A stretch of 64,000 bases of DNA. It comes from Escherichia coli. Lineage in GTDB: Bacteria; Pseudomonadota; Gammaproteobacteria; Enterobacterales; Enterobacteriaceae. The DNA lies in the NCBI RefSeq assembly GCF_022846255.1, contig NZ_AP025682.1; one strand, written 5' to 3'. Shown one piece after another: positions 36,188 to 38,622 of this stretch (its first letter is position 1; every line of letters begins with the position of its first letter). The position numbers were made by a program, and so were the translations under genes. The notes beneath the pieces are model-generated. The model searched no databases. It worked only from the letters and a program-made list of their open reading frames with translations, and was not told the DNA's origin.

Positions 36188-37423
36188 ATGACGGAACAAG
36201 AAAAAACCTCCGCCGTGGTTGAAGAGACCAGGGAGGCCGTGGACACCACGTCACAACCTGTCGCAACAGAAAAAAAGAGTAAGAACAATACCGCATTGAT
36301 TCTCAGCGCGGTGGCTATCGCTATTGCTCTGGCGGCGGGCGTCGGTTTGTATGGCTGGGGTAAACAACAGGCCGTCAATCAGACTGCCACCAGCGATGCC
36401 CTGGCTAACCAACTTACGGCACTGCAAAAAGCCCAGGAGAGCCAAAAAGCCGAGCTGGAAGGCATTATCAAGCAACAAGCTGTACAGCTTGAGCAGGCGA
36501 ATCGTCAGCAAGAAACGCTGGCAAAACAGCTGGATGAAGTCCAACAAAAGGTCGCCACCATTTCCGGCAGCGATGCTAAAACCTGGCTGCTGGCCCAGGC
36601 CGATTTTCTGGTGAAACTCGCCGGACGGAAGCTGTGGAGCGATCAGGACGTCACGACCGCTGCAGCGTTGCTGAAAAGTGCAGACGCCAGCCTGGCGGAT
36701 ATGAATGACCCGAGTCTGATTACCGTTCGCCGGGCAATTACCGATGATATCGCCAGCCTTTCTGCGGTATCGCAGGTGGATTATGACGGTATCATCCTTA
36801 AGCTTAATCAGCTTTCAAATCAGGTAGATAATCTGCGTCTGGCCGATAATGACAGCGATGGTTCGCCGATGGATTCCGACGGTGAAGAGCTTTCCAGTTC
36901 CATCAGCGAATGGCGTATCAATCTGCAAAAAAGCTGGCAGAACTTTATGGACAACTTCATTACGATTCGCCGTCGTGATGACACCGCCGTACCGCTGTTA
37001 GCGCCAAATCAGGATATCTATCTGCGCGAAAATATTCGCTCTCGCCTGCTGGTCGCAGCACAAGCTGTACCGCGTCACCAGGAAGAGACTTATCGCCAAG
37101 CGCTGGAGAACGTCTCCACCTGGGTACGTGCTTACTACGATACTGATGATGCCACCACCAAAGCGTTCCTCGACGAGGTGGACCAGTTAAGCCAGCAAAA
37201 TATCTCGATGGATCTTCCGGAAACCCTGCAAAGCCAGGCGATGCTGGAAAAATTGATGCAGACCCGCGTGCGTAACCTGCTGGCACAACCGGCAGCAGGG
37301 ACAACGGAAGCTAAACCTGCACCTGCACCTGCACCTGCACCTGCACCTGCACCTGCACCTGCACCTGCACCTGCACCTGCACCGCAAGCTGATGCTCCGG
37401 CAGCCGCGCCGCAAGGAGAATAA
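36188..37423 (+). CDS. hemX: HemX (uroporphyrinogen-III C-methyltransferase-like membrane protein)
   Basis: 411-aa product with a single N-terminal TM segment, coiled-coil region and a C-terminal (PA)n repeat. Confidence 0.9.
37316..37381 (+). repeat. hexanucleotide tandem repeat (CCTGCA)x11 encoding (Pro-Ala)11 within hemX
   Basis: 11 perfect tandem copies counted directly in the sequence. Confidence 0.95.
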
Positions 37424-37425
37424 CC

Positions 37426-38622
37426 ATGCTAAAAGTGTTATTGCTCTTTGTGTTGCTGATTGCGGGGATCGTGGTTGGCCCGATGATTGCCGGCCATCAG
37501 GGTTACGTGCTGATCCAGACCGACAACTACAATATTGAAACTAGCGTCACGGGCCTCGCGATTATTTTGATTCTGGCGATGGTAGTGCTGTTTGCCATTG
37601 AGTGGCTACTGCGGCGAATCTTCCGCACAGGCGCGCACACCCGTGGGTGGTTTGTCGGACGTAAGCGTCGCCGTGCACGTAAGCAGACCGAACAGGCGCT
37701 GCTGAAACTGGCGGAAGGCGATTATCAGCAAGTTGAAAAGTTGATGGCGAAAAATGCCGATCACGCTGAACAACCGGTGGTGAACTATCTACTGGCAGCC
37801 GAAGCCGCGCAACAACGTGGTGATGAAGCACGCGCCAACCAACATCTGGAACGCGCAGCGGAGCTGGCCGGCAATGACACCATTCCGGTAGAAATCACCC
37901 GTGTACGTCTGCAACTGGCCCGTAATGAAAACCATGCAGCACGTCACGGCGTGGATAAGCTGCTGGAAGTTACGCCACGCCATCCGGAAGTATTACGTCT
38001 GGCGGAACAGGCGTATATCCGCACTGGTGCATGGAGTTCGCTGCTGGATATCATCCCATCAATGGCGAAAGCCCATGTTGGTGATGAAGAACATCGTGCA
38101 ATGCTGGAACAACAGGCATGGATTGGCCTGATGGATCAGGCGCGTGCCGATAACGGTAGTGAAGGTTTGCGTAACTGGTGGAAAAACCAAAGCCGGAAAA
38201 CGCGTCATCAGGTGGCCTTGCAGGTGGCAATGGCGGAACATCTTATTGAGTGTGACGATCATGATACTGCCCAGCAAATTATCATCGATGGCCTGAAACG
38301 CCAGTATGACGATCGCCTGCTGCTGCCGATCCCGCGTCTGAAAACCAATAACCCGGAACAGCTGGAAAAAGTGCTGCGCCAACAGATCAAAAACGTGGGC
38401 GATCGCCCGCTGTTGTGGAGCACACTGGGTCAGTCGCTGATGAAACACGGAGAATGGCAGGAAGCATCGCTCGCCTTCCGCGCAGCGCTGAAACAACGTC
38501 CGGACGCCTACGATTACGCATGGCTTGCCGACGCGCTGGACAGACTGCACAAGCCGGAAGAAGCCGCAGCGATGCGTCGCGACGGTTTGATGTTAACGTT
38601 GCAGAACAACCCGCCACAGTAG
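37426..38622 (+). CDS. hemY: HemY (TPR-containing heme biosynthesis-associated membrane protein)
   Basis: 398-aa product matching HemY; begins 3 nt after hemX stop. Confidence 0.95.
   Translation: MLKVLLLFVLLIAGIVVGPMIAGHQGYVLIQTDNYNIETSVTGLAIILILAMVVLFAIEWLLRRIFRTGAHTRGWFVGRKRRRARKQTEQALLKLAEGDYQQVEKLMAKNADHAEQPVVNYLLAAEAAQQRGDEARANQHLERAAELAGNDTIPVEITRVRLQLARNENHAARHGVDKLLEVTPRHPEVLRLAEQAYIRTGAWSSLLDIIPSMAKAHVGDEEHRAMLEQQAWIGLMDQARADNGSEGLRNWWKNQSRKTRHQVALQVAMAEHLIECDDHDTAQQIIIDGLKRQYDDRLLLPIPRLKTNNPEQLEKVLRQQIKNVGDRPLLWSTLGQSLMKHGEWQEASLAFRAALKQRPDAYDYAWLADALDRLHKPEEAAAMRRDGLMLTLQNNPPQ

Follow-up and report, generated by a model that had tools for sequence, protein, structure and literature searches.

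The 3' end of hemX in the 64,000-nucleotide stretch of Escherichia coli DNA analysed here (hereafter the window) carries a perfect hexanucleotide array, (CCTGCA)x11, at positions 37316-37381 of the + strand, which encodes (Pro-Ala)11 as HemX residues 377-398. Our results reveal that this array is allele 11 of CVN014, a VNTR already used in E. coli MLVA typing. It is very probable that CVN014 is a slippage-driven and nearly neutral hexanucleotide microsatellite located in the C-terminal tail of HemX.

Direct reading of the window gives exactly 11 uninterrupted units at 37316-37381, and Tandem Repeats Finder calls an array at 37315-37383 with a period of 6, 11.5 copies, 100% matches and a score of 138. 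Every other array called by this program in the whole 64-kb window has 2.5 copies or fewer. An 18-nt probe made of three units has nine overlapping matches in the window, compared with none in 100 dinucleotide-preserving shuffles. Codon 377 begins at position 37316, which sets the reading frame as CCT-GCA, and 13 residues follow the tract to the HemX C-terminus. The initial annotation of this DNA had described a perfect, in-frame array of 11 units encoding (Pro-Ala)11 near the C-terminus of HemX, and the sequence reading and the Tandem Repeats Finder call agree with that description. It had also taken the greater length of HemX relative to K-12 as consistent with variation in repeat number. 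This is borne out by the hemX gene of K-12 DH1, which is 1182 nt long, encodes 393 aa and contains 2 units, compared with 411 aa and 11 units in the window; the 18-aa excess equals exactly nine units, so that repeat number accounts for the whole difference.

We then compared the array with published typing loci. The CVN014-R primer (GCAGCRGGGACAACGGAAGC; Table 1 of PMC8143711) has a single annealing site in the window at 37292-37311 (+ strand), with 0 mismatches and 0 matches expected by chance. The CVN014-F primer (TCCCCGCAATCAGCAAMACAAAGA; tabulated in the same paper) also has a single site with 0 mismatches, at 37445-37468 on the - strand and inside the start of hemY. The two primers converge around the array and delimit an in-silico amplicon of 177 bp. 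CVN014 alleles are calculated as (product size - 111)/6, where 111 bp is the offset outside the repeat and 6 bp is the unit; this gives (177-111)/6 = 11.0 for the window. The same formula returns integer alleles of 2 to 13 in all 12 fetched genomes with both primer sites matching; the other two fetched genomes, BL21 and NCTC11023, each have a variant in one CVN014 primer site. Because both published primers match exactly and the size formula gives the correct copy number, the hemX array is CVN014 and hence an already known typing VNTR. The primers of the other nine loci in the 10-locus scheme have no site in the window.

CVN014 belongs to the generic E. coli MLVA (Lindstedt et al. 2007), including the GECM-7 and GECM-10 schemes (Lobersli et al. 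2012). Typing papers detected it in all isolates and rank its variability highest among the loci of the scheme, with alleles 2-12 (PMC5217547), with alleles 4-15 and a Nei diversity of 0.83 (PMC3519732), and with variation within ST131 (PMC3407997; PMC3877011). The locus described here is the same throughout, i.e. in primers, unit, offset and status as the most variable marker, and the published allele ranges fit those of complete genomes, although the complete genomes analysed here span a wider range (0-23 copies). The suggestion that the array might serve as a typing marker thus proves correct in a stronger form, since it already does so under the name CVN014. The typing papers cited here, all later than the 2007 description, name the locus but neither the gene nor the encoded (Pro-Ala)n tail. 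A full-text literature search with the hexamer, covering every rotation on either strand except two, returned nothing for E. coli, and the papers describing the Vhec, TR and O157-n schemes, which we inspected for the hemX array, give neither primers nor gene names. One literature match that linked hemX with tandem repeats in Salmonella was discarded; hemX is there merely a SNP-carrying gene.

The host gene, hemX, occupies 36188..37423 on the + strand (411 aa), is present in the ORF list and is assigned by Pfam (PF04375, E = 4e-108) and by the NCBIfam HemX equivalog. It is flanked by hemC, hemD and hemY. HemX is poorly characterised in the literature. It binds YhcB/ZapG in two-hybrid tests in three species, co-purifies with YciS and has been termed a distant Mic60 homologue without a mitofilin domain. 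Its RefSeq product name is uroporphyrinogen-III C-methyltransferase. We searched HemX with Pfam for a methyltransferase family and found none; the matches are PF04375 ('HemX, putative ...') and a sub-threshold match to Tweety. Pfam thus does not bear out the methyltransferase assignment, and the RefSeq name seems to be a legacy of a 1988 sequence paper. The HemX proteins of Bacillus and Staphylococcus, compared here by description only, share the name but have another described role as regulators of glutamyl-tRNA reductase.

HemX of the window comprises an N-terminal hydrophobic helix (residues ~36-57), a long helical region, the PF04375 domain (130-363) and an unstructured tail (366-411). The tract starts 14 residues past the end of the Pfam HemX domain and stops 13 residues before the C-terminus. 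An AF2 model built from a shallow alignment of 13 sequences has a mean pLDDT of 44 and was used for the secondary-structure outline only; it places helices up to residue 365, followed by coil at pLDDT 25-32. Because this model is poor, the proposed disorder of the tail relies mainly on its composition and lack of conservation. We infer from the single N-terminal hydrophobic helix, which follows lysines, that the tail is probably periplasmic.

The initial annotation had viewed the tract as a flexible Pro-Ala linker of varying length. The change in length is confirmed, but the linker is not: only 13 residues, predicted as coil, follow the tract. An interdomain linker is likewise rejected, because the tract (377-398) lies beyond the HemX domain end at 363 and no second domain comes after it. 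Pro/Ala-rich extended segments are known from other envelope and multidomain proteins of E. coli, such as the OmpA hinge, the AceF lipoyl-domain linkers and the Pro-rich rod of TonB. The hemX tract resembles them as an extended, little-structured segment of Pro dipeptides. However, each of those segments bridges two folded or functional parts, and none is a hypervariable microsatellite, whereas the hemX tract is followed by only 13 residues and is built from one codon pair.

Among 132 diverse HemX homologues (representatives of clusters at 50% identity), tail length varies over 0-115 aa (median 12), and these tails are hydrophilic, of low complexity and not conserved. The HemX tails of Salmonella and Citrobacter are rich in P, A and T, but are shorter and differ in sequence; those of Citrobacter contain (PA)2-5. 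A six-unit CCTGCA array is also present in hemX of E. albertii and of Citrobacter sp. FP75. Two of the collected proteins carry internal duplications of another kind: in P0001 (485 aa, from one ENA contig), 74 aa that span the boundary between HemX domain and tail are repeated in tandem, and in the 413-aa P0080 of Salmonella Berta the tandem repeat is 24 aa long and surrounds the transmembrane helix. These duplications could be real or could be assembly errors.

The tail ends directly at the junction with hemY. The hemY gene (37426..38622, + strand, 398 aa; PF07219 HemY_N and TPR repeats) starts 2 nt past the hemX stop codon. Its Shine-Dalgarno sequence AAGGAG was read directly at 37413..37418 (+ strand), 7 nt before the hemY ATG at 37426, and is embedded in the last hemX codons Q-G-E (CAA GGA GAA). 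A QGE or QEG ending recurs among HemX homologues, including distant ones, probably because the hemY ribosome-binding site overlaps the end of hemX. This suggests that the HemX C-terminus may be constrained at the DNA level by initiation of hemY translation. In RNA folding, the tract pairs with itself, and the z values are -1.4 with 11 copies and +0.6 with the K-12 allele. We also looked for pairing between the tract and the hemY ribosome-binding site in the predicted RNA fold and found none; such pairing in the mRNA is accordingly rejected, the tract folding on itself with ordinary energies.

The hemX-hemY junction locus is found in 5,425 of 5,426 complete E. coli genomes. The one remaining genome has no junction match, some genomes contain two matching places, and one such place is on a plasmid. 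We determined the allele distribution from two systematic samples taken down the match ranking (n=119 of 5,425). In this sample, the median is 6 copies, Nei diversity is ~0.90 and alleles range from 0 to 21. Two copies are the most frequent state (19 genomes), followed by five and six copies (18 each), seven (10), nine (9), eight and ten (8 each), four and eleven (7 each), three (5), twelve (4) and thirteen (3), while 0, 15 and 21 copies occur in one genome each. The window allele of 11 thus represents ~6% of the 119 genomes. A synthetic probe of 30 copies retrieved at least 60 genomes with 14-23 copies, and sampled O157:H7 genomes contain 4 to 17 units. The overall range seen in complete genomes is therefore 0 to 23 copies, and this comparison of hemX alleles across E. 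coli genomes substantiates the variation in copy number between strains that the initial annotation had proposed.

Seventeen alleles were read at the sequence level. Perfect arrays of 2, 4, 5, 6, 7, 8, 9, 10, 11, 12, 13, 22 and 23 units were found, and one three-unit array holds a variant unit, CCTGTA. Sequence-checked length differences are whole units, except for an interrupted array in strain P276M and a deletion in NCTC11023. The hemX frame and stop codon are intact in all 17, as expected from the earlier claim that changes in copy number keep the frame. In P276M (NZ_CP044293.1), the array is (CCTGCA)7 ... (CCTGCA)4 with 3-nt indels and remains in frame. The hemX-hemY region of this strain is divergent (92% identical to the window), and its hemY is annotated as a frameshifted pseudogene that also contains an internal stop. 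NCTC11023 (NZ_LS483297.1) carries a natural null allele, in which the entire tract and more of the tail are deleted, 27 nt below K-12. A substitution to I in this strain falls in the CVN014-R primer site, because of which NCTC11023 would fail the CVN014 MLVA PCR.

Comparison of closely related genomes shows that copy number changes faster than the flanking sequence accumulates substitutions. Three O157:H7 strains have 4, 12 and 13 units, yet there are 0 SNPs in their 1,200-nt flanks (tract removed). Other groups with identical 1,200-nt flanks have 8, 9 and 13 units, or 7 and 11 units. Copy number varies over 6-11 units among 60 genomes that each match the 400-nt flanks of the window at 99.8% identity, and many of these genomes belong to ST131 or phylogroup B2. 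These 60 genomes were retrieved with a synthetic 0-copy probe that was meant to rank the shortest alleles first; its ranking tracked flank identity instead, because split alignments put no penalty on the gap. The strains ZH49 and ZH48 (pig, Zhengzhou) have 20 and 16 units, respectively, within 30.4 kb of identical flanks, and their difference reflects either a change that occurred very recently or a misassembled long repeat. Short alleles look stable, and all 19 two-copy genomes sampled, with named K-12 and laboratory strains among them, share one allele.

Several features of the tract bear on how it changes. Every one of the 11 Pro residues of the tract is encoded by CCT, a codon used for only 1 of 11 elsewhere in hemX. 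A single codon pair in the tract, with CCT rare outside it, points to amplification of one unit rather than to selection for amino-acid composition. Imperfect hairpins are predicted for both DNA strands of the tract (-12.2 kcal/mol, z = -4.9, and -14.8 kcal/mol, z = -2.6), and hairpins arising from the TGCA palindromes could stabilise slipped intermediates. Taken together, the whole-unit differences, the single codon pair and the hairpin potential make slipped-strand mispairing the likely mechanism.

In these respects, CVN014 resembles other in-frame 6-bp VNTRs with which enterobacteria are typed, such as the Vhec, TR and O157-n loci of E. coli O157 and Salmonella STTR5, which are alike in their short unit, in whole-unit changes attributed to slippage and in speed. 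They are located in different genes, and 6-bp VNTR loci of O157 change at about 4e-5 to 2e-3 per generation in culture (PMC3777172). Like the contingency loci of Haemophilus, Neisseria and Campylobacter, CVN014 is a hypermutable intragenic tandem repeat that is probably changed by slippage. In those loci, however, a unit change shifts the frame or alters a promoter and thereby acts as an on/off switch, whereas every allele of the hemX array seen here leaves the gene intact. A phase-variable contingency locus is consequently rejected for hemX, where the 6-nt unit equals two codons and 17 of 17 alleles are in frame.

The explanation that we favour, and consider very probable as stated above, can be outlined as follows. 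Replication slippage would add or remove whole 6-nt units, and imperfect hairpins formed by the TGCA palindromes in the unit may assist it. Because the unit equals two codons, the frame would always be kept, and changes in copy number would merely lengthen or shorten (Pro-Ala)n in the unstructured HemX tail. The tail would act as a variable spacer between the conserved HemX domain and the codons that double as the hemY ribosome-binding site. As this spacer would be free to vary, copy number would drift fast and nearly neutrally, and such rapid drift would make CVN014 the most discriminating marker of the generic MLVA. Near-neutrality is suggested by the tolerance of the tail to change, as judged from sequence comparison. 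The further proposal in the initial annotation, that copy number tunes HemX function, is unsupported.

A possible alternative is adaptive length tuning, in which (Pro-Ala)n is a semi-rigid spacer whose length determines the reach of the HemX C-terminus across the periplasm and is selected according to lineage or niche. Pro-Ala repeats are extended, with a length of about 0.3 nm per residue, and a range of 0-23 units would change this reach by as much as about 14 nm, which is a considerable fraction of the width of the periplasm. The envelope partners of HemX (YhcB/ZapG and YciS) and the P/A-rich tail common to Escherichia, Citrobacter and Salmonella also speak for such a role. We nevertheless consider it unlikely. 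Of the mere 13 residues that remain after the tract, the final three are fixed by the hemY ribosome-binding site, which leaves no obvious functional end-piece to position. The tail is 12 residues or shorter in about half of the 132 HemX homologues, and the natural null allele of NCTC11023 dispenses with the tract altogether. Moreover, alleles in the sample are broadly distributed between 2 and 13 copies with no sharp optimum, and near-identical strains differ in copy number. Quite doubtful, too, is a broader version in which tail length is non-neutral because a slippage-adjusted spacer alters engagement with YhcB/ZapG or YciS/LapA, or alters the amount of HemY. If it were true, E. coli lineages would use slippage in hemX as an in-frame tuning knob of the envelope.

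Another explanation places the effect in the mRNA: the repeat could affect expression of the translationally coupled hemY through RNA structure or through the transit of ribosomes across the CCT codons. The close spacing of the two genes (2 nt between the hemX stop and hemY), the hemY Shine-Dalgarno sequence within hemX and the position of the repeat 31-110 nt upstream of that Shine-Dalgarno sequence are compatible with this, as are the ability of the tract RNA to self-fold and the exclusive use in the tract of CCT, a Pro codon rare in hemX. Even so, we regard an effect on hemY as very improbable. The predicted RNA tract pairs only with itself and with ordinary energies, ribosomes translating hemX would unwind any structure anyway, and Pro-Ala is not known as a strong stalling motif. 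Finally, although some assemblies are error-prone at long perfect repeats, reading the array as a sequencing or assembly error or as a chance low-complexity run is refuted by its recurrence at the same site with whole-unit differences in 5,425 complete genomes, by the sizing of CVN014 by PCR in many laboratories and by the lack of matches in shuffled sequences.

The same hexamer also occurs outside hemX. The MLVA locus V5 of Yersinia enterocolitica has the same unit, written GGTGCA. In Yersinia aldovae ATCC 35236 (L017, 989-1024), six copies encode (PA)6 at the very C-terminal end of a DUF218 membrane protein, and this array may be the counterpart of Y. enterocolitica V5. We rejected V5 as a hemX homologue because the Y. 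aldovae array sits in the DUF218 (SanA-like) protein and not in hemX. In Escherichia albertii NBRC 107761 (L027, 689-760), an array of 12 copies, read on the opposite strand, encodes (Ala-Gly)12 within the central part of an enzyme of the DHDPS family (DapA/NanA-like), and this insertion divides the DHDPS-family Pfam match into two stretches.

The generic E. coli MLVA has relied on CVN014 as its most discriminating marker since 2007, and the array itself therefore carries little weight as a discovery. What is added here is that CVN014 is now explicitly tied to the (Pro-Ala)n tail of HemX, with consequences for genome-scale analyses of this gene. In a paper that applied PAML to 92 E. coli genomes from wastewater (PMC9110714), the main text, which names hemX just twice, ranks this gene far ahead of all others for positive selection, with a signal that lies below the significance threshold by more than 100 orders of magnitude. 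As far as it is described there, this signal plausibly stems from misalignment of hemX alleles that differ in CVN014 length, and length polymorphism in hemX probably corrupts codon alignments. The natural series of 0-23 units also provides ready material for work on the function of the tail in a poorly understood envelope protein.
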